The notes under the pieces: model-generated
Told to the model about the DNA's origin: nothing
The model's database searches: none
What the model saw: the letters and a program-made list of their open reading frames with translations, nothing else
Program-made: the position numbers and the translations under genes
From: Candidatus Woesearchaeota archaeon
Lineage (GTDB): Archaea > Nanobdellota > Nanobdellia > Nanobdellales > CAZNIQ01
Length of the DNA: 27,561 nucleotides
NCBI GenBank assembly: GCA_964573185.1
Contig: CAZNIQ010000007.1
Coordinates: 1 to 27,561 of the forward strand
Direction: 5' to 3'
Shown here: positions 5,170-27,561 of the stretch, in pieces
Numbering within the stretch: the first letter of the stretch is position 1
Layout of the letters: every line of letters starts with the position of its first letter

Positions 5170-6141
5170 ATGGCCAAGAAAAAAGAAATAAAAGATATAG
5201 AAGATTTACCAGGAGTTGGTCCAAAAACTGCTGAAAAGTTGAGATCTGCGGGGTATACTACTTTACTAGATATTGCATCTGCAACTCCTGAAGAACTTTC
5301 AGAAAGAGCAGGAATTGGTGAAAATGTTGCAAGGAAAATAATAGAAGCTGCAAGACAAGCTGTAGGTTTTGGTTTTATTACAGCAGATAAAGTATTAGAA
5401 ACTAGGCAGCAATCTGAAAGAATTACTACAGGCTCAAAGAATCTAGATTCGTTATTGGGTGGTGGGGTCGAAACACAAGCCATTACGGAAGCGTATGGAG
5501 AATTCGGATCTGGAAAAACACAATTAGGATTTCAATTAGCAGTAAATGTACAATTACCTAAAGAGAAGGGAGGGTTATCTGAACCAGATAATCCAGCAAA
5601 GGTAGTATTCATTGATACAGAGGGAACCTTTAGACCCGAAAGAATTATGCAAATGGCAAAAGCTGTAGGTCTAGATCCTCAACAAGTATTAAAGAATATA
5701 TTTGTTGCTAGAGCTTTAAATACAGATCATCAGATGGAACTAGTCAGAGAAATACCAAAATTAATCAAAGAAGGTCATAATATAAGGCTGGTTATAGTAG
5801 ATTCCATAACGGCACATTTCAGAGCAGAATATGTTGGAAGGGGAATGTTAGCAGAAAGGCAACAGAAATTAAATAAGCATATAAGAGATTTATTAAAAAT
5901 AGCTACGGCATATAACATTGCAGTTTATGTTACTAATCAAGTAATGGCAAAGCCAGAAGGTTTTTACGGATTTGAATTAGTACAAGCTATAGGTGGACAT
6001 GTATTAGCTCACGCAGTAACATATAGAGTATTCCTAAGGAAAGGTAAAGGAAATATAAGAATAGCAAGATTGGTAGATGCTCCTCATCTACCAGAAAGAG
6101 AGGTAACATTTAGAATCACTGACGAGGGGATACGTGACTAA
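5170..6141 (+). CDS. radA: DNA repair and recombination protein RadA
   Basis: N-terminal HhH ([17 protein letters not shown]), Walker [10 protein letters not shown] and Walker B LVIVDS; 323 aa. Confidence 0.95.
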
Positions 6142-14662: not shown

Positions 14663-15576
14663 GGGTATTTGTACAGTATCCAGAAGGCTTAAAGAACAAA
14701 CTTTGGGAAATAAAAAAGAAGTTAGAAGAACAAGGATATGAAGTCATTTTTGATAATGAACCGACGTATGGATTTTGTGATTTAAAGGATGATGAGGCTT
14801 TAAGATTAGGCTGTCAAGCTATAATACATATAGGGCATAATGCTTTTGGCTTTGAACATTTATTAAAGAAATCTAAAGTTAAAGTAATTATATGGGAATG
14901 GAAATATGATGTTGATAAAGAAAAAGTAGATAGAATACTTAAAAAAGAAATAAATAAGATTAGAGATTATAAGAGAGTCGGAATTGTATCTTCTTTACAA
15001 TATCTAAATTACGTTTATTATTTAAAGGAAAAACTTAAAGAATTGGGGTTTGAACCAATAGTACCAAAGAATCCGCAGATTTTAGGTTGTAATATTGCCA
15101 ATGCTAGAATAATAGAAAATAGAGTAGATATCTTTTTGGTTCCAACAGAAGGAAAATTTTATCCTTTAGGTTTAGCTTTAGAGACTGATAAACCGGTATT
15201 CGCTTTCGATTTAGAAAAAGAACAAATAATTTCAATGGAAAAGGAAAGGAAAAAATATTTAACTGTAAAATATTATTACTTAGAGAAATTTAAAGAAGCT
15301 AAGAAAGTTGCTTTGTTAGTATCATGGAAAAAGGGACAAATGTTTTATGATCCATTTAAAGTTAAAGAAGAATTGGAAAAAATGGGAAAAGAAGTTATTA
15401 TTCTAGCTATGGATGAAGTAGATGAAAGAAAATTAATTGGAATAGATGTGGATTTCTATATCAATTTAGCTTGTCCCAGGATCTTTGATGGGTTTGAAAG
15501 ATTTGAAAAACCAATACTAAATTGGAAAGATATTATTCAGTGGCGCCGCTCCCTTCATCAAAGTTCAGAGGACTGA
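14659..15576 (+). CDS. dph2: diphthamide synthase subunit Dph2 (2-(3-amino-3-carboxypropyl)histidine synthase)
   Basis: VQYPEGLKNKLWEIKKKLEEQGYEVIFDNEPTYGFCDL...IIHIGH, plus conserved Cys in LGCNI and LACPRI. Apparent TTG start overlaps the upstream stop. The last ~13 codons are antisense to a C/D sRNA. Confidence 0.8.
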   Translation: MRVFVQYPEGLKNKLWEIKKKLEEQGYEVIFDNEPTYGFCDLKDDEALRLGCQAIIHIGHNAFGFEHLLKKSKVKVIIWEWKYDVDKEKVDRILKKEINKIRDYKRVGIVSSLQYLNYVYYLKEKLKELGFEPIVPKNPQILGCNIANARIIENRVDIFLVPTEGKFYPLGLALETDKPVFAFDLEKEQIISMEKERKKYLTVKYYYLEKFKEAKKVALLVSWKKGQMFYDPFKVKEELEKMGKEVIILAMDEVDERKLIGIDVDFYINLACPRIFDGFERFEKPILNWKDIIQWRRSLHQSSED

Positions 15577-15587
15577 AAGCTCATCAT
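15537..15587 (-). ncRNA. box C/D sRNA (second unit of the tRNA-Leu array)
   Basis: Minus strand: C AUGAUGA 15587-15581; 12-nt guide gcuuucaguccu; D' CUGA 15568-15565; C' UGAUGA 15560-15555; 14-nt guide agggagcggcgcca; D CUGA 15540-15537. Confidence 0.85.
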
Positions 15588-15638
15588 TCAGTTAAGCCCG
15601 CCTTTCATCAAATTTCAGGGTCCCAGCTGTATCATCAT
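15588..15638 (-). ncRNA. box C/D sRNA (first unit, fused to the tRNA-Leu 3' end)
   Basis: Minus strand: C AUGAUGA 15638-15632, whose first A is the tRNA discriminator; 13-nt guide uacagcugggacc; D' CUGA 15618-15615; C' UGAUGA 15610-15605; 13-nt guide aaggcgggcuuaa; D CUGA 15591-15588. Confidence 0.88.
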
Positions 15639-15721
15639 GGGCCCGCCGGGATTTGAACCCGGGACGGCTCTACGCCATCGGGACCTGAACCCGACCCCTT
15701 TGGCCGCTCGGGCACGGGCCC
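15638..15721 (-). tRNA. tRNA-Leu(CAG): tRNA-Leu (anticodon CAG), class II with long variable arm
   Basis: rc: GGGCCCG UG CCCG AGCGGCCAA AGGG G UCGGG UUCAGGU CCCGA UGGCGUAGAGCCGUC CCGGG UUCAAAU CCCGG CGGGCCC A. Confidence 0.9.
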
Positions 15722-16944: not shown

Positions 16945-16967
16945 AATCTTACGTTAAAAAGTTTTAA

Positions 16968-17018
16968 GTGTAGAGGACGGTGTGTGCTGAATTATGATGA
17001 CGTTACCCGGCGTCCTGA
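16968..17018 (+). ncRNA. box C/D sRNA with degenerate 5' box C
   Basis: GUGUAGA 16968-16974 (alternative register UAGAGGA 16971-16977); guide ggacggugugug 16975-16986; D' CUGA 16987-16990; C' AUGAUGA 16994-17000; 14-nt guide cguuacccggcguc; D CUGA 17015-17018. Confidence 0.65.
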
Positions 17019-17048: not shown

Positions 17049-17097
17049 ATGATGATGAGTGGGTTTGCTGAAAATGATGAATGGCATGGGACACTGA
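17049..17097 (+). ncRNA. box C/D sRNA lying inside the 5' end of the UDG ORF
   Basis: C AUGAUGA 17049-17055; 12-nt guide ugaguggguuug; D' CUGA 17068-17071; C' AUGAUGA 17074-17080; 13-nt guide auggcaugggaca; D CUGA 17094-17097. Confidence 0.85.
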
Positions 17098-17705
17098 AAG
17101 AATTAGAAAAAGTTCATCAAGAGATCTTAAAATGTCAAAGATGTCCTTTATACAAATACATTACAAACAAAGTCCCCGGAGAAGGAGATCCCACTTCTGG
17201 AATAATGTTTATCGGAGAAGCCCCCGGGAGAGAAGAAGATAAACAAGGTAGACCTTTTGTCGGACCAGCTGGTAAACTATTAACAAAGATGATTGAAGAA
17301 AAATTGGGAATTCAAAGATCAAAAGTTTATATCACAAATGTTTTGAAATGTAGACCCCCAAATAATAGAGATCCTAAACCAGAAGAAATAGAAGCCTGCT
17401 CAATATGGTTAAAGAAACAGTTAGAGATTATAAAACCAAGAGTGGTTGTAACATTGGGTAGATACTCTACAGAATGGATATTCAAATATTTCGGTTTAAA
17501 ATTCACAAAAATTTCAGAAGTTAGAGGAAAAGTATATACTGTTAAAAAATGGGATCATGTAACTTATATAATTCCTACATATCATCCTGCAGCAGTTTTA
17601 TATCATCCGCAATGGAAAGAAGCTTTCGAAAGAGATTTTGAATTGATTAAGAAAGTTATAGAAGGAAAAGAAAAGAAGCCTAAAACATTGGTAGATTTCT
17701 TTTAA
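17049..17705 (+). CDS. udg: family 4 uracil-DNA glycosylase (Fe-S type)
   Basis: CQRCPL...GEGDPTSGIMFIGEAPGREEDKQGRPFVGPAGKLL...VYITNVLKCRPPNNRDP...HPAAVLY. The only in-frame ATGs upstream of the CxxC motif lie in the sRNA C box, so the true start is uncertain. Confidence 0.85.
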   Translation: MMMSGFAENDEWHGTLKELEKVHQEILKCQRCPLYKYITNKVPGEGDPTSGIMFIGEAPGREEDKQGRPFVGPAGKLLTKMIEEKLGIQRSKVYITNVLKCRPPNNRDPKPEEIEACSIWLKKQLEIIKPRVVVTLGRYSTEWIFKYFGLKFTKISEVRGKVYTVKKWDHVTYIIPTYHPAAVLYHPQWKEAFERDFELIKKVIEGKEKKPKTLVDFF

Positions 17706-18190: not shown

Positions 18191-18220
18191 ATTATACAAT
18201 TTGAGTTAGAGTTTGGAAAA

Positions 18221-18549
18221 ATGAAAATAGATGGTAAGGATTTAATACTGATATAGTTTTGTATTCAAATGGAGGGTAGAAAGAAGACTAAAGGAGCTCT
18301 CAAAACATAAAAAGGAGAAATACATACATACCCTTAATAAGAGAAAAATTAGAAGCTATTATAAAAGAAAATTATAATTAAATTTTAATTGGAACGGGAA
18401 TTTATGGTTATTTACCTATAGAAAAAGGAGCTATAGATTATTTGAAAGAAAAAACAAAGTACATAATTATTGGAAAAAAGCAGAGATATCTTAGATTTGA
18501 TTAAAGATTTAAATAAAGTATAGTAGCAATAATTCGCATCACATGTTAA
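18221..18549 (+). pseudogene. decayed Mth938-domain (DUF498-like) gene
   Basis: No long ORF in the 383-nt gap. ATG 18221 gives MKIDGKDLILI then a stop. After a frameshift, one frame from 18271 reads GG*KED*RSSQNIKRRNTYIPLIREKLEAIIKENYN*ILIGTGIYGYLPIEKGAIDYLKEKTKYIIIGKKQRYLRFD*RFK*SIVAIIRITC*. The IDG start, IGTG core and C-terminal VAxIxxTC match my recollection of the Mth938 family. Confidence 0.6.
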
Positions 18550-18573
18550 AAAGTTTAAGGATTAAAGATTAAA

Positions 18574-19981: not shown

Positions 19982-20073
19982 GGGCCCGTAGCTCAGCCTG
20001 GTTAGAGCGCCGGCCTTATAAGGCCGGGCTCTAAGACAGCCGGAGGTCCCGGGTTCAAATCCCGGCGGGCCCA
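19982..20073 (+). tRNA. tRNA-Ile(UAU): tRNA-Ile (anticodon UAU) with a 17-nt intron at the canonical 37/38 position
   Basis: GGGCCCG UA GCUC AGCCUGGUUA GAGC G CCGGC CUUAUA[intron]A GCCGG AGGUC CCGGG UUCAAAU CCCGG CGGGCCC A; mature length 75 nt. Confidence 0.85.
20021..20037 (+). other. tRNA intron with bulge-helix-bulge motif
   Basis: Intron AGGCCGGGCUCUAAGAC. C32-U33-U34-A35 pair with intron UAAG (20032-20035). The 3-nt bulges U36-A37-A and A-C-A38 flank this 4-bp helix, with both splice sites between bulge nucleotides 2 and 3. Confidence 0.75.
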
Positions 20074-20868: not shown

Positions 20869-21417
20869 ATGAAATGCTACATCTGCAAAAGAAATGAAGG
20901 AAAGTTACACCCTATCTATGGATATCCTTTGTGTAGAAATTGCGCAAAAAAACTAATTTTTAGAAAGATTGGAAATAATCTAAGAAGATTAAAAATTAGA
21001 AAAAAAGAGGAAATTAAGGTCTTTATATGGGAAAGTTCTTTAAGTAACTTAGCTTTAGAATATTTAAAAGGAGTTATAGAAAAATGGAAGCCAAGACCTA
21101 AAATAATTTCTGTAAAAAATGACCCAGATGTAAAAATAGTCCCTGCAGAAGTTTTATTAGTTTATTTAATAGCCTCTTTTTATGATAAAAAATATTTCAA
21201 CGAATTCAAATACTTTTTTGAGAAAAATATTACCTGGAACGTTACAGAAAAAGAAGCAGAGTTCGTTACTGGACAATATTTAATCTCCTTTGAAAACGAA
21301 TTCCTAAATGATATATTTTTAAAGATGAAAGAAGTGCTAGATAAAAAACCAAGTTACTATAAAACGTACATAAATTTCTTAAGGTTCACATATGAAAATA
21401 ATATCTTTTTCCTCTAG
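20869..21417 (+). CDS. hypothetical protein with N-terminal zinc ribbon (182 aa)
   Basis: CYIC...CRNC; the 3' end overlaps the convergent methyltransferase gene by 39 nt. Confidence 0.4.
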   Translation: MKCYICKRNEGKLHPIYGYPLCRNCAKKLIFRKIGNNLRRLKIRKKEEIKVFIWESSLSNLALEYLKGVIEKWKPRPKIISVKNDPDVKIVPAEVLLVYLIASFYDKKYFNEFKYFFEKNITWNVTEKEAEFVTGQYLISFENEFLNDIFLKMKEVLDKKPSYYKTYINFLRFTYENNIFFL

Positions 21418-21900
21418 GATCTTTTCCTTAATTTTAAAATATCTTTTAATTAATTCCTCCCAGTTTTTCTTTCCCCTATTTAAAACAGATATAATAGCAA
21501 TACCGTCTTTCTTTATAGCCTCTTTTAATTTGGCTAGTATTTTCTCTGGTTGGGGATCATCCTGCAAAACAGTAATACAAAATATTAAGTCAAATTCTTC
21601 TTTAAAATTCATTTCTTTTAGATCCATTTTTAGAAATTTTACTTTTTTATTCTTTATTCTTTCTTTAGCTTTCCTTAACATATTTTCTGAAATATCTATA
21701 GCTATAATTTCATTACATATGCTCAAAAGATATTCTGTTGAAATCCCAGTACCGCAACCCGCATCCAAACACTTATTAAATCTCTTTTTCAAAAATCTCT
21801 TAATAATCTCAAGTTTTCTTCTCTGCTCCTCTCCGTATAACTCATCATAAATGTTCGCTAAATGATTGTACCACTCCTCAGCCCCTGCTCCAGTCATCAT
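21379..21900 (-). CDS. class I SAM-dependent methyltransferase
   Basis: Motif I LDAGCGTGIST and IAIDISENM. Start placed at ATG 21900 (MMTGAGAEEWYNHLANIYDELYG), which is the C' box of an sRNA. The track start GTG 21912 lies in the sRNA guide. Confidence 0.7.
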   Translation of the reverse strand: MMTGAGAEEWYNHLANIYDELYGEEQRRKLEIIKRFLKKRFNKCLDAGCGTGISTEYLLSICNEIIAIDISENMLRKAKERIKNKKVKFLKMDLKEMNFKEEFDLIFCITVLQDDPQPEKILAKLKEAIKKDGIAIISVLNRGKKNWEELIKRYFKIKEKILEEKDIIFICEP

Positions 21901-21925
21901 AATCAGGAGCACACAAGTTCATCAC
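21878..21925 (-). ncRNA. box C/D sRNA overlapping the methyltransferase start
   Basis: Minus strand: C GUGAUGA 21925-21919; 12-nt guide acuugugugcuc; D' CUGA 21906-21903; C' AUGAUGA 21900-21894; 12-nt guide cuggagcagggg; D CUGA 21881-21878. Confidence 0.85.
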
Positions 21926-21935
21926 TTATAAAAAT
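21926..21935 (+). promoter_or_regulatory. TATA box TTATAAAAAT for the HD-domain gene
   Basis: Centre is about 25 nt upstream of ATG 21955; directly adjacent to box C of the divergent sRNA. Confidence 0.5.
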
Positions 21936-21954
21936 AGTAATCAAAAATATTTTA

Positions 21955-23067
21955 ATGATAATTGCAGATCCGATCTACAACGTTATAGAATTGCCGGATG
22001 AACTTGAAAAACTTATAGATACTCCTGTAGTTCAAAGGTTAAGGAGGATCAAACAATTAGCTTTTGCAAATTTAGTATATCCATCTGCAAATCATACTAG
22101 ATTTGAACATTCTCTAGGAGTTGCTTTTCTTTCTGGAAAAATTGCGGAAAAGGTAAATGAAGATAAATTATTTTATCAGATCTGCGGTTTGTTGCATGAC
22201 GTTGGACATGGACCTTTCTCCCATGCATCAGAAGACGTTTTTCATGTTATTACGAATAAAACTCATGAAGATTTATCCGAATATTGGATAAAACAAATAA
22301 AAGACGTTATTTCTGAACTCGGATATGATTATAAAAAAGTTATAAAGGAAATTAAAGGAAAGGGTTTGGGGATTGTTAATTCTGAACTTGACGCTGATAG
22401 ATTGGATTATTTACAAAGAGATGCGCACCACACAGGAAATTACTTTGGAAAAATCTCTATCTGGTATTTAATAAATAACATTGCGAAAAGAGATGGGAAA
22501 ATTGTTTTTAAAGAAAAAGCAGTGCCAACAATAGAGCAAATATTAATAGCTAGAGGATTAATGTATAATACGGTTTATTTGCATAAAACCACAATATCAG
22601 CAACAGTCTTATTTTATGATGCTTTATTCAACTTAATTGAAAAAGGATATAAAATAGAGGAAATAATGAGGTTAGATGACTATAGATTGATAAAATTATT
22701 TATAGAGGAAGAAATAGAAGAATGGAAGAGAATTGAAAATAGAGATCTTCCAAAACTACTTTTGGAGTTTTATCCTTCCAAGGAATTAACATTCAAGGAA
22801 ATATTAGAAATTAGAGAAGAAATAGAAAGTAAAATTAACGTAAAAATCTATATTTGGCCATTAGAGTTGAAAGAGAAAAGAAAGAAATGGAAAATACATA
22901 TTCTATTAAATGATAATATTGTATCGTTATCTCGAGTTTCTAAAGTCACCCCTTATTTAAGTTTTTTAGAAAAGAGAGTAAAAGCAATAAGAATCTATGT
23001 AGATAAGAAATTTAAAAAAGAAGAAATAAAAGAAAGTATCCTTAAAATTTTAGATAGTTATCAGTAA
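21955..23067 (+). CDS. HD-domain phosphohydrolase (COG1078, dNTPase/SAMHD1-like)
   Basis: RFEHSLGVAFL...GLLHDVGHGPFSH...ELDADRLDYLQRDAHHTG. Start moved to ATG 21955 because the track start 21862 reads antisense through the sRNA. Confidence 0.8.
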   Translation: MIIADPIYNVIELPDELEKLIDTPVVQRLRRIKQLAFANLVYPSANHTRFEHSLGVAFLSGKIAEKVNEDKLFYQICGLLHDVGHGPFSHASEDVFHVITNKTHEDLSEYWIKQIKDVISELGYDYKKVIKEIKGKGLGIVNSELDADRLDYLQRDAHHTGNYFGKISIWYLINNIAKRDGKIVFKEKAVPTIEQILIARGLMYNTVYLHKTTISATVLFYDALFNLIEKGYKIEEIMRLDDYRLIKLFIEEEIEEWKRIENRDLPKLLLEFYPSKELTFKEILEIREEIESKINVKIYIWPLELKEKRKKWKIHILLNDNIVSLSRVSKVTPYLSFLEKRVKAIRIYVDKKFKKEEIKESILKILDSYQ

Positions 23068-23108
23068 CCTACCCTTTCATCACACTCAGACCACACAGCT
23101 ATCATCAT
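23061..23108 (-). ncRNA. box C/D sRNA
   Basis: Minus strand: C AUGAUGA 23108-23102; 12-nt guide uagcuguguggu; D' CUGA 23089-23086; C' UGAUGA 23082-23077; 12-nt guide aaggguagguua; D CUGA 23064-23061 (antisense to the last codons of the HD gene). Confidence 0.88.
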
Positions 23109-23135: not shown

Positions 23136-23549
23136 ATGAAAATCTATTTTAAGGAAATTACCATAGAAACTAATCAAAGAAGAGAGTTAATAAATATCAC
23201 CGAAAAAGTTGAAGAGGTTGTTAAAGAATCTAATATAAAAAATGGTGTTGTCTTGATTTTTGTTCCTCATGCAACAGCAGCATTAATTACTAACGAGGAT
23301 GAACCAAACATTAAGAAAGATTATCTCAATTTATTTGAGAAATTAGTTCCGGAAAATGGAAATTATTATCATAATTTAATAGACAATAATGCAGATGCAC
23401 ATTTACTAAGTGTATTATTGAAGCCTTTCTTGATATTTCCTATTAAAGATAATAGGGTCGTAAGAGGCACTTGGCAAGAGATATTCTTAGTAGAGTTGGA
23501 TGGACCCAGAATAAGAAGAATTATTATAGAAGTTCTGGGTCAGGGGTGA
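23136..23549 (+). CDS. YjbQ/UPF0047 family protein (secondary thiamine-phosphate synthase-like)
   Basis: 137 aa; INITEKVEEVV...GVVLIFVPHATAALITNEDEP...NADAHL...GTWQEIFLVELDGPR is the UPF0047 pattern. Confidence 0.75.
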   Translation: MKIYFKEITIETNQRRELINITEKVEEVVKESNIKNGVVLIFVPHATAALITNEDEPNIKKDYLNLFEKLVPENGNYYHNLIDNNADAHLLSVLLKPFLIFPIKDNRVVRGTWQEIFLVELDGPRIRRIIIEVLGQG

Positions 23550-23587
23550 CCGTGCTCATCATTTTCAGCTCTGTCAACGATCATCAT
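23540..23587 (-). ncRNA. box C/D sRNA
   Basis: Minus strand: C AUGAUGA 23587-23581; 12-nt guide ucguugacagag; D' CUGA 23568-23565; C' AUGAUGA 23562-23556; 12-nt guide gcacggucaccc; D CUGA 23543-23540 (antisense to the last codons of yjbQ-like). Confidence 0.88.
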
Positions 23588-23624
23588 TTTTTTAAACGTT
23601 GTATTACAAGGTATAAATAGATTT

Positions 23625-23696
23625 GGGGCCGTAGTCTAGCGGCATGACGCCGCCCTGACGAGGCGGAGGTCCGGGGTTCGAATCCCCGCGGCCCCA
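23625..23696 (+). tRNA. tRNA-Val(GAC): tRNA-Val (anticodon GAC)
   Basis: GGGGCCG UA GUCU AGCGGCA UGAC G CCGCC CUGACGA GGCGG AGGUC CGGGG UUCGAAU CCCCG CGGCCCC A. Confidence 0.88.
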
Positions 23697-23780
23697 GCCG
23701 CGGTGCCCGAGCGGTCCAAGGGGTCGGTCTGGAGAGCCGATGGCCGTAAGGCCTCCGGGGTTCGAATCCCCGCCGCGGCG
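23697..23780 (+). tRNA. tRNA-Ser(GGA): tRNA-Ser (anticodon GGA), class II, discriminator G
   Basis: GCCGCGG UG CCCG AGCGGUCCA AGGG G UCGGU CUGGAGA GCCGA UGGCCGUAAGGCCUC CGGGG UUCGAAU CCCCG CCGCGGC G. Starts at the base after the tRNA-Val discriminator. Confidence 0.88.
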
Positions 23781-25445
23781 CTAGGATAAAGCATTTTTTA
23801 AGACAAGCTTCAATAAATCTTCAGAATCTATTTTATAATTATATCTTCTCCAATCGTACTCAACTATTTCCTTTTCTTTGATAATTGTTATGTCTAGTTT
23901 TTCTAAGGGAATATATTTTTTTAAAACATTAAATAACAAATTGAAATCACCCTGTATTATTTTTCTTTTTTCTATCTTTACCTTTCCCTTCCATTTTGGA
24001 TTAAAACTTTCAGGAAATTTCTCTTCAACGGAATACATAAATTCTTTTTTAACATATACTTTTCCTATAGGAGTATAAAAATAAACAATTTCTCCCATTT
24101 CTAAACCCTTTTTTAAAGCTTCCCTTACTTCTCTTAAGGTAGCTCCTGTAATTTCCTTAATCCATTCCTCTGGCAGTGGTTCTGTAAGAATATCTAAAAT
24201 CTTTGAAATTCTACTTTTCATCCAAACTTCTTTTAATAAATCAGCAGATATTCCTATGTCAATATATCTTTTTACATGTTCCAAGCCTAACAAAAATAGA
24301 TCGGTATCAATAGTATTTGGGGTAATTATGTAAGTTGCAAATTTCAATGGTTTTGAAGGTCTCATAATTCTTCCGTGTCTTTGAATAAATCTTAAAGGAT
24401 TAGAGGTATGCGACCAAATTATTAGCAAATCTGCTTCAGGTAGATCAACACCTTCCTCACCAGCAGAAGTAGAGATTATTATCTTAGATTTCTTAGCCTC
24501 CTCAAGCTTTTCTCTCATTTTTTCTCTTAACTTACCAACTATTAATGTGACGGAATATTCTTTACTTAGAATTTCATACAGTTTCTTTGCAATAATAACT
24601 CTATCAACAAAAATTATAGCTTTTTCAAAACCTTCATAGACATTCAATATTTTGAAAAGGGTAGGTAATTTATGTAAATCCCTTAATTGGATTATTTTTT
24701 CTTTCAAATCTTCTAATTTTTCAGATAGCTTTGTTCTTTTGGATAAGCTTTCTTTTAGAGCTAAAGCACCATCTGACGAAAAATATTTCAGAGCCAAAGT
24801 ATAAATAAGCTTTTCAGTTCCTTTTGCTTTTTTTCTTCTTTCATCAATTATATCGTATATCTCTTGTTCTTCTTTATTAAAGGGTGCTTCAAAGATATCT
24901 CCAATCCAAGAGGGAACGTATTTTGAAACTAATGGGTGTGTAGCCGGGTATTCCTTTATAATTCCTATTAATTCTTCCAATTCTTTTCTTCTCTTTTTAG
25001 GAATGAAAGCCGTTAAACCCAAAGCATATTCAAAATCTATATTTTTTAATACTTTTACGTAAGCATCTTCTCCAACAGCATGGTGACATTCATCAACTAC
25101 AACAATCTTAAAGTCTTTAGCAAACTCTAAATCATAATAAACTGTTTCAGGAGTTGCTATAACTATTTTTGCTTTCTTCCAAAGTTCTTTTCTTTTCTCT
25201 TTCCTATAAATCCCGTAAATTTTTATAGCATTTAAACCCCAATCTTTATACATCCTTTCAGTTTGTTCAACTAAAATTCTTGTTGGAACAAGAACTAAAG
25301 CCTTATAATCTGGGTGTTTTTTTAGAAGCTCTTTAACAAAATGTATACCAACTATAGTCTTACCTGTTCCTGTGGGTAAAACGATAATGCTTTTCTTTTG
25401 TTTTAAAGCAAAATCGAGAGCTTCTTTTTGATATTCTCTAAGCAT
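23781..25445 (-). CDS. SF2 DEAD/DEAH-box helicase, Hef/FANCM-like helicase module
   Basis: REYQKEAL...VLPTGTGKT (motif I), VVDECHHAVGEDAY (motif II, resembles Hef DEAHRAVGNYAY) and QRHGRIMR (motif VI). 554 aa; no nuclease domain seen. Confidence 0.7.
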   Translation of the reverse strand: MLREYQKEALDFALKQKKSIIVLPTGTGKTIVGIHFVKELLKKHPDYKALVLVPTRILVEQTERMYKDWGLNAIKIYGIYRKEKRKELWKKAKIVIATPETVYYDLEFAKDFKIVVVDECHHAVGEDAYVKVLKNIDFEYALGLTAFIPKKRRKELEELIGIIKEYPATHPLVSKYVPSWIGDIFEAPFNKEEQEIYDIIDERRKKAKGTEKLIYTLALKYFSSDGALALKESLSKRTKLSEKLEDLKEKIIQLRDLHKLPTLFKILNVYEGFEKAIIFVDRVIIAKKLYEILSKEYSVTLIVGKLREKMREKLEEAKKSKIIISTSAGEEGVDLPEADLLIIWSHTSNPLRFIQRHGRIMRPSKPLKFATYIITPNTIDTDLFLLGLEHVKRYIDIGISADLLKEVWMKSRISKILDILTEPLPEEWIKEITGATLREVREALKKGLEMGEIVYFYTPIGKVYVKKEFMYSVEEKFPESFNPKWKGKVKIEKRKIIQGDFNLLFNVLKKYIPLEKLDITIIKEKEIVEYDWRRYNYKIDSEDLLKLVLKNALS

Positions 25446-26378: not shown

Positions 26379-27101
26379 ATGAAAGTACTACAGATACTCA
26401 AAGAAAGATATCCTGATACTTATGAAAAGATAATTAAAGGAGAAGTAGACAAGATAAAGCCAAAAGACGAGATTGAAAAGATGCTTCTTGAAATTTTCTT
26501 TTCTAATGATAGGAGGAGTTCAAAATACATTGATGAATTTTTTAGATTAAAATGTGCAAAAGATATAGTTGAAATTTTAGGTAAGAATCTTTCAGCAAAA
26601 GAAATTACTGAAGCAATGAGTATTAGAGACAGATTAAGGAAATTAGATATAAAGGATGCTATTGTTTTTGATTTTTGTGCAGGAAAAGCAATATTTTCTT
26701 TATTAGTAGCATTTACTTTACCAGTTAGAAAAGTTATCGCAATAGATATCAAAAAACCGAATATAGATTTTTCAGGAGTAAGAAAATTTGAGTACTATGA
26801 GGTTAATTTATTTGATAAAGAAGTTGAGGAGATTATAGAAAAAGAAGAAGGTAGGAAAATTTTTGTTGGAATCCATTGTTGTAAAAATTTATCTATAAGA
26901 GTAATAGAGTTATTCAATAAATATGGAGATTATTTATTTTTAATGCCTTGTTGTGTTTTAAGAACTTTTAAGAACGATTTCTGGGGATATATAGATTGGG
27001 TAAAGTTCCTAGTATCAAAAGTTAAAAAGGGGAAGGTTAAAGTAGAATGGGATTGGGATGTGTGGTCCGAAAGAAATGCTATAATTCAGGTGATGACCTG
27101 A
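26379..27101 (+). CDS. putative Rossmann-fold methyltransferase-like protein (weak)
   Basis: VFDFCAGKAIFSLL...VIAIDIK resembles MTase motifs I/II; paired Cys motifs HCCKN and MPCC. The last codons GTG ATG ACC form box C of the following sRNA. Confidence 0.4.
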   Translation: MKVLQILKERYPDTYEKIIKGEVDKIKPKDEIEKMLLEIFFSNDRRSSKYIDEFFRLKCAKDIVEILGKNLSAKEITEAMSIRDRLRKLDIKDAIVFDFCAGKAIFSLLVAFTLPVRKVIAIDIKKPNIDFSGVRKFEYYEVNLFDKEVEEIIEKEEGRKIFVGIHCCKNLSIRVIELFNKYGDYLFLMPCCVLRTFKNDFWGYIDWVKFLVSKVKKGKVKVEWDWDVWSERNAIIQVMT

Positions 27102-27139
27102 TAGGCAAACAGAGAAATGAAGAACCTACCCGTAACTGA
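27090..27139 (+). ncRNA. box C/D sRNA (unit 1 of 3)
   Basis: C GUGAUGA 27090-27096; 13-nt guide ccugauaggcaaa; D' CAGA 27110-27113; C' AUGAAGA 27117-27123; 12-nt guide accuacccguaa; D CUGA 27136-27139. Confidence 0.75.
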
Positions 27140-27187
27140 TGATGAGCCTGTTACCATCAGATTTATGAAGACACCGCGAGGTGCTGA
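27139..27187 (+). ncRNA. box C/D sRNA (unit 2 of 3)
   Basis: C AUGAUGA 27139-27145 (first A shared with the preceding box D); 12-nt guide gccuguuaccau; D' CAGA 27158-27161; C' AUGAAGA 27165-27171; 12-nt guide caccgcgaggug; D CUGA 27184-27187. Confidence 0.8.
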
Positions 27188-27237
27188 ATGATGAATTTTC
27201 CTGCTACTGAAAATTGATGAAAGGTCCCATTCACTGA
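27188..27237 (+). ncRNA. box C/D sRNA (unit 3 of 3)
   Basis: C AUGAUGA 27188-27194; 12-nt guide auuuuccugcua; D' CUGA 27207-27210; C' UGAUGA 27215-27220; 13-nt guide aaggucccauuca; D CUGA 27234-27237. Confidence 0.88.
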
Positions 27238-27561
27238 TTATACTCTCCTACCTCTCTTACCTCCTTTTCTTCTACAACCGTCATGTGGAATTGGTGTAAC
27301 ATCCTCTATTATCCCAATTTTTAATCCTGCGTTAATCAAAGCCTTTATAGCAGCTTGAGCACCAGGACCTGGATGTTTCGGTCCGTTATGACCACCAGGG
27401 CCCCTTACTTTGACATGTACAGCGTTTATTCCTCTTTCCAAGGCTAATTCGGCTGCTTTTCTTGCAGCAAGCATGGCAGCAGTAGGTGTTCCTTCCAATC
27501 TATCAGCATCTACTACTTGACCACCCGAAGCTAAAGCAATTGTTTCTGCTCCTGTTATATC
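27238..27561 (-). CDS. rps11: 30S ribosomal protein S11 (C-terminal part; gene continues beyond the right edge)
   Basis: ...[57 protein letters not shown]...[44 protein letters not shown]. The frame stays open upstream of the track's TTG start. Confidence 0.9.

Follow-up and report, generated by a model that had tools for sequence, protein, structure and literature searches.

Can one stretch of archaeal DNA be the gene of a guide RNA and, on the same strand, the beginning of a protein gene, and in which order did the two come together? This question is raised by 48 nucleotides (nt) at positions 21925-21878 (minus strand) of contig CAZNIQ010000007.1 (assembly GCA_964573185.1, Candidatus Woesearchaeota archaeon); the whole stretch that was analysed, i.e., positions 1 to 27,561 of this contig, is called hereafter the window. 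An earlier note had placed there a box C/D small RNA (sRNA) that overlaps the open reading frame (ORF) of a methyltransferase dependent on S-adenosylmethionine (SAM), back to back with the promoter of a divergent HD-domain gene. The account favoured here, which is regarded as probable when taken as a whole, is that of a working guide gene of the type of Nanoarchaeum equitans sRNA17, captured as the start of the methyltransferase gene and associated with two nested promoters.

Anatomy of the overlap

Read on the minus strand, 21925-21878 is GUGAUGA-12 nt-CUGA-UU-AUGAUGA-12 nt-CUGA, i.e., the canonical compact (minimal) layout of archaeal C/D sRNAs. Box C is of the RUGAUGA type, box D is CUGA, the internal boxes D' and C' are separated by TT (2 nt) and both guides have exactly 12 nt. 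The coordinates and box positions of the earlier note are correct to the base. The parts of the unit and the coding sequence (CDS) that it overlaps are the following:

21878-21925, minus strand: box C/D sRNA gene, 48 nt, recognised by its boxes and guides, by Rfam matches below threshold and by orthologues in a metagenome scaffold (L001), in GCA_054017035.1 (L124) and in N. equitans
21919-21925, minus strand: box C, GUGAUGA; in the methyltransferase frame, two TGA stops (21924-21919) that close the frame upstream
21907-21918, minus strand: D' guide, 12 nt, ACTTGTGTGCTC (RNA ACUUGUGUGCUC); holds the alternative start GTG 21912-21910
21903-21906, minus strand: box D', CUGA; an mRNA start placed at about 21904-21903 by geometry only would fall inside it
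21894-21900, minus strand: box C', AUGAUGA; reads Met-Met, ATG 21900 being the likeliest methyltransferase start
21882-21893, minus strand: D guide, 12 nt, CTGGAGCAGGGG (RNA CUGGAGCAGGGG); also codes Thr-Gly-Ala-Gly-(Ala)
21878-21881, minus strand: box D, CUGA, read as (GC)U-GA(G); the protein core EEWYN opens here
21379-21900, minus strand: CDS of a class I SAM-dependent methyltransferase, 173 amino acids from ATG 21900; Pfam Methyltransf_11/25/31

Across the 27.5-kb window, nine units of the C/D layout were found with a strict regular expression and 11 distinct units with a looser scan; a 12th one, with a degenerate box C, was spotted by eye at about 16965-17018. The looser scan gave no unit in each of 20 shuffles. 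At Rfam gathering thresholds, the window contains eight tRNAs only and no C/D family, which is expected because the models are guide-specific. With permissive thresholds, sR2, sR12, sR1 and snoPyro_CD align at 21876-21929 (minus strand), all below their gathering scores. Folding of the 48-nt unit is no better than that of shuffles (z = -1.4) and fits unstructured ends as in N. equitans. It must be noticed that UGCUCC, with which the D' guide ends on its 3' side, can pair with the core of the D guide (GGAGCA; 21882-21912), i.e., self-folding is possible. As predicted from its sequence, 21925-21878 is a genuine box C/D sRNA gene.

Since ATGAT-type starts are common in the window (8861, 9447, 20826, 21955), one may think that AT-rich codon usage yields AUGAUGA...CUGA at the start of an ORF by chance. 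This explanation keeps practically no probability: the four-box pattern with 12-nt spacings is absent from the 20 shuffles, and chance is refuted already by the homology of the guides to sRNA17, a species detected by RNA-seq, and by the stand-alone orthologue of L124 (see below).

The product of the overlapped gene is recognised by Pfam Methyltransf_11 (4e-21), Methyltransf_25 and Methyltransf_31, and its DAGCGTG motif is invariant in the protein alignment. In an NCBIfam search no model or equivalog reaches its cutoff, so no substrate is assigned to it. Translation of the ORF frame across the sRNA gives one Lys, two stops and TCVLLIMMTGAGAEEWYNHLANIYDE, i.e., Lys-stop-stop-Thr-Cys-Val-Leu-Leu-Ile-Met-Met-Thr-Gly-Ala-Gly-Ala-Glu-Glu-Trp-Tyr-Asn-His-Leu-Ala-Asn-Ile-Tyr-Asp-Glu. 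Only three candidate starts precede the conserved core: GTG 21912 in the D' guide, then ATG 21900 and ATG 21897, both in box C'. The next in-frame Met lies past the SAM-binding motif. In the alignment the conserved core opens at EWYN, which corresponds to box D, and two orthologues devoid of sRNA begin with MVDAKEWYN and MIKDIKEWYN, i.e., with just 4-6 variable residues ahead of EWYN. Because box C is made of two in-frame stops and the core begins at box D, the reading frame indicates that the methyltransferase must start within the sRNA and that the overlap is not an artefact of ORF extension.

These data agree with two statements of the earlier note, namely that C' (21900-21894) reads Met-Met with the 12-nt guide and box D coding T-G-A-G-A-E, and that the only alternative start is a GTG inside guide 1. 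Its further statement that the C' AUG supplies the start stands in part. The start would lie inside the sRNA and the C' AUG (21900) is the most likely one, because the geometry of the central TATA element (see below) would give a near-leaderless mRNA there; GUG 21912 of the D' guide is a less probable candidate. The 173-amino-acid product, as called in other assemblies, starts at ATG 21900. The sRNA and the ORF are on one strand with the start codon inside the sRNA, i.e., a sense 5' overlap. It comprises the first eight codons of the methyltransferase, 21 nt being both guide RNA and coding sequence. In the favoured account, the frame would thus open inside the sRNA: box C as a double stop, C' as Met-Met, the D guide and box D as the codons of TGAGA-E.

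Orthologues, conservation and the predicted 16S target

In N. equitans, sRNA17 (...AUGAAGA UAUUGUGUGCUU CUGA ACUA AUGAUGA AAGGAGCAGGAA CAGA...; Randau 2012, Genome Biol 13:R63, PMC3491384, Additional file 2) is represented by 49,200 RNA-seq reads and is located between NEQ384 (SpoU-type methylase) and NEQ386. The predicted target of its D guide is 16S-1349 (CCCUmGCUCCUUGCAC), and its D' guide has no predicted target (PMC3491384). The window sRNA shares both guide cores, UUGUGUGCU and GGAGCAGG, with sRNA17. The two RNAs are alike in their compact architecture, in their homologous guides (D' UAUUGUGUGCUU/ACUUGUGUGCUC; D AAGGAGCAGGAA/CUGGAGCAGGGG), in the predicted 16S target, in the D' guide that is an orphan by prediction and in the methyltransferase gene that adjoins them. 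On the contrary, the boxes of the N. equitans copy are degenerate (C AUGAAGA, D CAGA) with a 4-nt spacer while those of the window are perfect; moreover, the N. equitans copy is not reported as the source of a start codon while C' opens an ORF in the window.

L001 contains the same fusion of sRNA and gene, with a methyltransferase 75% identical to that of the window. Its unit is tttataa GTGATGA GCTTGTGTGCTT CTGA TC ATGATGA CTGGAGCAGGGG CTGA, then ...EEWYN, and the 7 nt before box C are the same as in the window. The genome of L124 encodes an HD protein and a RadA that are 70% and 97% identical, respectively, to those of the window. The sRNA orthologue of L124, ATGATGA GCTTGTGTGCTC CTGA AC ATGATGA TAGGAGCAGGGG CTGA, lies 4 nt off the orthologous HD start and is stand-alone, convergent with another sRNA. 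The methyltransferase of this genome is on another contig, within a SpoU-DUF371-methyltransferase operon without sRNA. When the window, L001, L124 and N. equitans are aligned, UUGUGUGCU and GGAGCAGG are invariant in 4/4; judged by these cores, the window sRNA is the orthologue of sRNA17. Because the sRNA of L124 stands alone beside the HD gene and the methyltransferase operon is on a different contig, both the sRNA and its association with the HD gene are older than the fusion with the methyltransferase. The same comparison indicates that the lineage which comprises the window and L001 is the one in which the methyltransferase gene came to follow the sRNA. In L124, the two convergent sRNAs (5900-5996) are 1 nt apart, and the TGA in the box C of the plus-strand one is the stop of ORF 5691-5903.

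Other sequences were considered. L126 is a 99.93%-identical strain, thus uninformative for comparison, and the more distant HD orthologues L127 and L128 have no sRNA nearby. For P0001 and P0022 (99%-identical proteins), exact look-up gave no contig on record. The pattern TGATGAN{1,4}GGAGCAGGGNCTGA, scanned over genome contigs, was too loose: the matches listed are mostly bacterial and due to chance, and L087, the lone archaeal match among them, was rejected since it is inside a coding region. A two-guide pattern gave no match over metagenome contigs; L129, the sole match of a looser architecture pattern on these contigs, is a 24-nt coding tandem repeat and not an sRNA. The best named relatives of the window RadA are from Nanoarchaeota, Nanopusillaceae and Nanobdella (67-70% identity). 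The G+C content of the window is about 30% and that of its tRNAs about 70%, which suggests a thermophile. The window is the full length of a contig from a metagenome-assembled genome, and the organism is taken to be an uncultured nanoarchaeote.

Between the window and L001, the sRNA is identical at 45/48 positions, to be compared with 22-43/48 in the downstream 48-nt bins. The three differences affect the spacer and both extremities of the D' guide. For the methyltransferase, the ratio of nonsynonymous to synonymous rates (dN/dS) is about 0.05 and the proportion of synonymous differences (pS) is 0.74, i.e., synonymous sites are near saturation. By this measure the gene is functional and under strong purifying selection. 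In the D guide and box D, no four-fold degenerate third position has changed (5/5 conserved, vs. 12/23 elsewhere in the gene), a suggestive but weak sign of sRNA constraint. Box C and the D' guide are conserved though they are outside the ATG-started ORF, and this appears as stronger evidence for a constraint of the sRNA's own than the synonymous sites. The N-terminal residues are not conserved among the orthologues without sRNA, thus selection on the protein cannot explain the conservation of the sRNA.

These results bear on the idea that the sRNA is a relic, i.e., no longer a guide and kept as promoter-proximal and N-terminal coding sequence. Two distal pairs of the D guide are indeed lost with respect to N. 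equitans and, in Pyrobaculum, a predicted target is retained by only 2/17 of the guides over which the 5' end of an ORF extends (Lui 2018, NAR 46:5678, PMC6009581). Nevertheless a relic is very improbable. A sequence free to decay would not be expected to retain four perfect boxes and guide cores identical in all four genomes, nor 45/48 identity next to nearly saturated synonymous sites, with its three changes at positions free of sRNA constraint. The conserved box C and D' guide outside the ORF, and the varying N-termini of the sRNA-less orthologues, speak in the same sense.

With 16S UCCCUGCUCC, the D guide of the window forms 10 contiguous pairs (9 Watson-Crick and 1 G-U) on an N. equitans/consensus segment, in which the 5th nt upstream of box D faces a U equal to U1349 of N. 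equitans. The left part of this segment comes from the quotation in Randau 2012 and its right part, GCUCCUUGCACACACCGC, from the complement of an archaeal primer. The primer GCGGTGTGTGCAAGGAGC is the complement of the consensus GCUCCUUGCACACACCGC and occurs in papers that deal, by their titles, with archaeal or methanogen communities. Pairing to the segment UCCCUGCUCCUUGCACACACCG amounts to 10 for the D guide of the window, 11 for that of L124 and 11 for that of N. equitans. The 2'-O-methylation that the D guide would direct concerns a U of CCCUGCUCC, a conserved 16S stretch on the immediate 5' side of the universal GCACACACCGCCCGUC region. The core of the D' guide, UUGUGUGCU, is strictly conserved yet without predicted target. 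On 16S, this guide makes no more than 7 base pairs, with GCACACA, which follows the target of the D guide immediately on the 3' side. When the window and related loci were searched for sites that the D' guide could pair with, G-U pairs being allowed, the matches were non-specific and AT-rich, none in tRNA. Viral contigs were scanned for the 16S target segment and gave no match.

Promoter geometry and transcripts

The sequence upstream of the sRNA is shared with the divergent HD gene. Its ATG is at 21955-21957, and its N-terminus MIIADPIYN is common to the 70%-identical orthologue. The features of this region are the following:

21955-23067, plus strand: CDS of an HD-domain phosphohydrolase, 370 amino acids, probably leaderless; Pfam HD and HD_assoc_2
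21926-21932, both readings (TTATAAA/TTTATAA): TATA-like element between the divergent starts (HD ATG, -29; methyltransferase ATG, -32)
21948-21955, minus strand: candidate box A of the sRNA, TTAAAATA; its first T is at -30 from box C, and it overlaps the HD start codon on the other strand

On the plus strand, 21926-21935 is TTATAAAAAT. Box C abuts the TATA of the HD gene, as previously claimed, this TATA-like element being at -29 from the HD ATG. Read in the other direction (TTTATAA, 21932-21926), the first T of this central TATA is at -32 from ATG 21900, -20 from GTG 21912 and -35 from ATG 21897. TATA-like hexamers start at -29/-28 in 11/28 ORF starts (background 0.011 per nt). Because TATA motifs peak at -29/-28 of ORF starts, the genome looks predominantly leaderless, like that of N. 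equitans, where box A is located about 26-27 nt upstream of start sites (Randau 2012, PMC3491384). At the present locus, HD ATG 21955 fits this pattern (-29); methyltransferase ATG 21900 is at -32 (mode -29/-28). The other divergent pairs of the window (4240/4289, 9447/9498, 873/911, 20826/20869, 26340/26379) have a single central TATA-like element and an ATG-ATG distance of 37-50 nt; the distance is 48-50 nt in those compared with the HD-methyltransferase pair, where it is 54 nt. Their arrangement indicates bidirectional promoters with, for the most part, putative leaderless mRNAs.

In L124 a TATA-like TTATATATT is also found at -30 from box C, though it is inside the HD ORF there. The HD gene of L124 lacks its own TATA and is probably transcribed by read-through from the upstream side. 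On the 3' side of box D of the window sRNA there is no run of at least five T for 82 nt.

Taken together, the motifs suggest two nested promoters on the minus strand, i.e., box A for the sRNA and the central TATA for the methyltransferase. The sRNA precursor would start from box A, which precedes box C by 30 nt. Because no oligo-T tract separates the sRNA from the methyltransferase ORF, this precursor would read into the latter and would then be trimmed to the 48 nt protected by the ribonucleoprotein (RNP). From the central TATA, common with the HD gene, transcription of the methyltransferase would begin at about 21904-21903 and yield a near-leaderless mRNA, i.e., with a 3-4-nt leader as far as can be judged from geometry. 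One fused transcript, as the earlier note implied, is allowed by this promoter geometry, which also allows, and favours, a separate near-leaderless mRNA from inside the sRNA gene.

The version with a single bifunctional transcript deserves to be detailed. A transcript from box A 21955-21948 would start at box C and be joined by L7Ae, Nop5 and fibrillarin for trimming; it would be either trimmed to the sRNA, with destruction of the mRNA, or translated, and the RNP on the AUG would repress the methyltransferase. Translation would begin at the C' AUG with a 25-nt leader, or at GUG 21912 with a 13-nt leader and the GUGAU of box C as a weak Shine-Dalgarno sequence. The position of TTAAAATA, kept in L124, and the first run of five T only 82 nt past box D are in agreement with such a transcript. 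Co-transcription has been inferred for overlaps of this type (Lui 2018, PMC6009581; Tripp 2017, via PMC7994747), and L7Ae bound to k-turns at or just after the start codon represses translation in reporters (Daume 2017, PMC5539422). On the other side, the genome looks overwhelmingly leaderless, there is no Shine-Dalgarno sequence before the AUG, and a TATA lies at a distance fitting a leaderless start at AUG 21900. Moreover, strong purifying selection implies a need for reasonably efficient expression, yet 5' overlap depresses expression in reporters. A single transcript is thus judged unlikely.

The nested promoters, if both are used, could form a switch, in which the same 21 nt would be guide or coding 5' end according to the start site that fires. 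L7Ae/Nop5 bound to the C'/D half-unit of the mRNA could tie the methyltransferase to the supply of sRNP, a conserved target and a protein N-terminus being held in the same bases. Such a switch can be put forward only tentatively.

Several points weigh against the favoured account of a working guide gene captured as a gene start. In reporters, 5' overlap lowers downstream expression (Tripp 2017, via PMC7994747). Furthermore: (i) the start codon in use, transcription start sites, processing, the ends of the sRNA, its association into an RNP, the N-terminus of the protein and the methylation itself are inferred; (ii) pairing of the D guide was checked solely on the N. equitans 16S segment from the paper and on the archaeal consensus; (iii) the D guide of the window is devoid of the two distal pairs of N. 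equitans (CU, not AA); (iv) the methyltransferase TATA is at -32, i.e., 3 nt beyond the genomic mode, and no orientation can be read from a B recognition element (BRE); (v) the test on synonymous sites is marginal (P about 0.04-0.07; Fisher 0.06); (vi) the GUGAU of box C could pair with the 3' end of 16S, and GUG 21912, which follows it by 8 nt, is for this reason a possible start on a longer transcript. The anti-Shine-Dalgarno sequence is AUCAC. The anatomy of the sRNA, its orthology, the constraints on the ORF, the geometry of the motifs and the purifying selection on the gene are established.

Other sRNAs of the window, known systems and significance

The companion case proposed at the UDG gene is real: ORF 17049-17705 (plus strand; family 4-like) begins on a box C, and no second in-frame start precedes its conserved core. 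Its start is found only on ATGATGATGA of the box C of sRNA 17049-17097, with TTTAAA at -29. At this locus, the sRNA and a leaderless mRNA would have one start site, and the whole sRNA would code the first 16 residues. The argument that two fusions in 5 kb speak against coincidence is weak, given at least 12 sRNAs in a window of a very compact genome, where 2/12 is unremarkable. Directly upstream of the UDG sRNA, the sRNA at about 16965-17018 has GTGTAGA as box C; its D' guide GGACGGTGTGTG matches 16S CACACACCGCCC at 11/12 positions, and this 16S match adjoins the target of the methyltransferase-linked sRNA.

On the minus strand, 15537-15721 contains a tRNA-Leu (15721-15638) followed without gap by two tandem C/D sRNAs (15638-15588 and 15587-15537). 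The box C of the first one begins at 15638, the last base of tRNA-Leu according to ARAGORN, and the second one overlaps the 3' end of a diphthamide-synthesis ORF on the opposite strand. By analogy with reports on N. equitans, this region appears to be a tRNA-sRNA-sRNA precursor. Three C/D sRNAs in direct tandem (27090-27139, 27139-27187 and 27188-27237) occupy 27090-27237 on the plus strand, between a methyltransferase-like ORF (26379-27101) and the end of ORF 27238-27498; the first two have CAGA as D' and AUGAAGA as C'.

The sRNAs 23061-23108 and 23540-23587 (both minus strand) flank a YjbQ/UPF0047 gene. The box C of 23061-23108 abuts TTTAAAT, the -28 TATA of the YjbQ gene, i.e., box C and TATA are back to back as they are at the HD gene, and the 3' end of this sRNA is antisense to the HD stop. 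In the case of sRNA 23540-23587, TTTATA is located at -30, and the final 10 nt of the YjbQ ORF are covered in antisense. Among the tRNAs, tRNA-Val and tRNA-Ser (23624-23781) directly adjoin each other, and the one at 19982-20073 (plus strand) has an 18-nt intron in the anticodon loop, ARAGORN giving no anticodon for it. The 384-nt AT-rich gap 18191-18573, upstream of a TyrRS-like gene, was examined because an H/ACA sRNA adjoins TyrRS in N. equitans: no H/ACA RNA, no Rfam match with E<=1 and no G+C-rich hairpins were found in it. In total, the 27.5 kb contain at least 12 C/D sRNAs and 8 tRNAs, while N. equitans has 26 sRNAs in 490 kb. None of the C/D sRNAs of the window reaches an Rfam gathering score, thus standard annotation would miss them.

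The arrangement of sRNA and gene start is not a new phenomenon; it is an established category, already described in other archaea. In Pyrobaculum, "Category 1" comprises sense sRNAs that cover the beginning of an ORF and hold its start codon in box C' or the D guide; interference of L7Ae with initiation is also discussed (Lui 2018, PMC6009581). Overlap at the 5' end concerns about 7% of 300 archaeal sRNA genes (Tripp 2017, Mol Microbiol 103:151; Breuer 2021 review, PMC7994747). In N. equitans most C/D sRNAs overlap mRNAs, several overlap methyltransferase genes, and tRNA-sRNA dicistrons exist (Randau 2012, PMC3491384).

The locus resembles the overlaps of Lui 2018 and Tripp 2017 by the sense orientation, the start in C' or the D guide, the inferred co-transcription and the proposed release by RNP protection. 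It differs from them in two respects: (i) the overlapped guides are there mostly orphans (2/17 with a target) while the predicted target of the window D guide is kept down to N. equitans; (ii) a second TATA for a leaderless start inside the sRNA is plausible here and was not found described in the passages of these sources that were read. The double stop also has its parallel, since box C serves as the stop of upstream ORFs in the same sources; the UGAUGA of the box closes the frame here, and in L124 the box C of a neighbouring sRNA closes ORF 5691-5903. Those cases are however 3' overlaps while the window uses C' as a start. L7Ae represses translation through k-turns in 5' untranslated regions or near start codons (Daume 2017, mBio 8:e00730-17, PMC5539422), and a k-turn or k-loop at the start codon could likewise let L7Ae block initiation in the window. 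In that system a dedicated k-turn of the 5' untranslated region is accompanied by a Shine-Dalgarno sequence, whereas a full guide RNA is present here and regulation is speculative.

For annotation, the C/D sRNAs of nanoarchaeal metagenome-assembled genomes are often below Rfam thresholds, and ORF starts of the AUGAUGA type merit checking. The locus leaves the understanding of C/D sRNA biology unchanged; only the nested promoters or a regulatory role, if demonstrated, would alter it. Specific to this locus are the deeply conserved predicted target of the overlapped guide, an order of events that can be reconstructed and the geometry of a second TATA for a start inside the sRNA. It is thus a comparatively dated case, in which a relocated gene would have taken an older guide of rRNA methylation as its translation start, both guide cores being unchanged.

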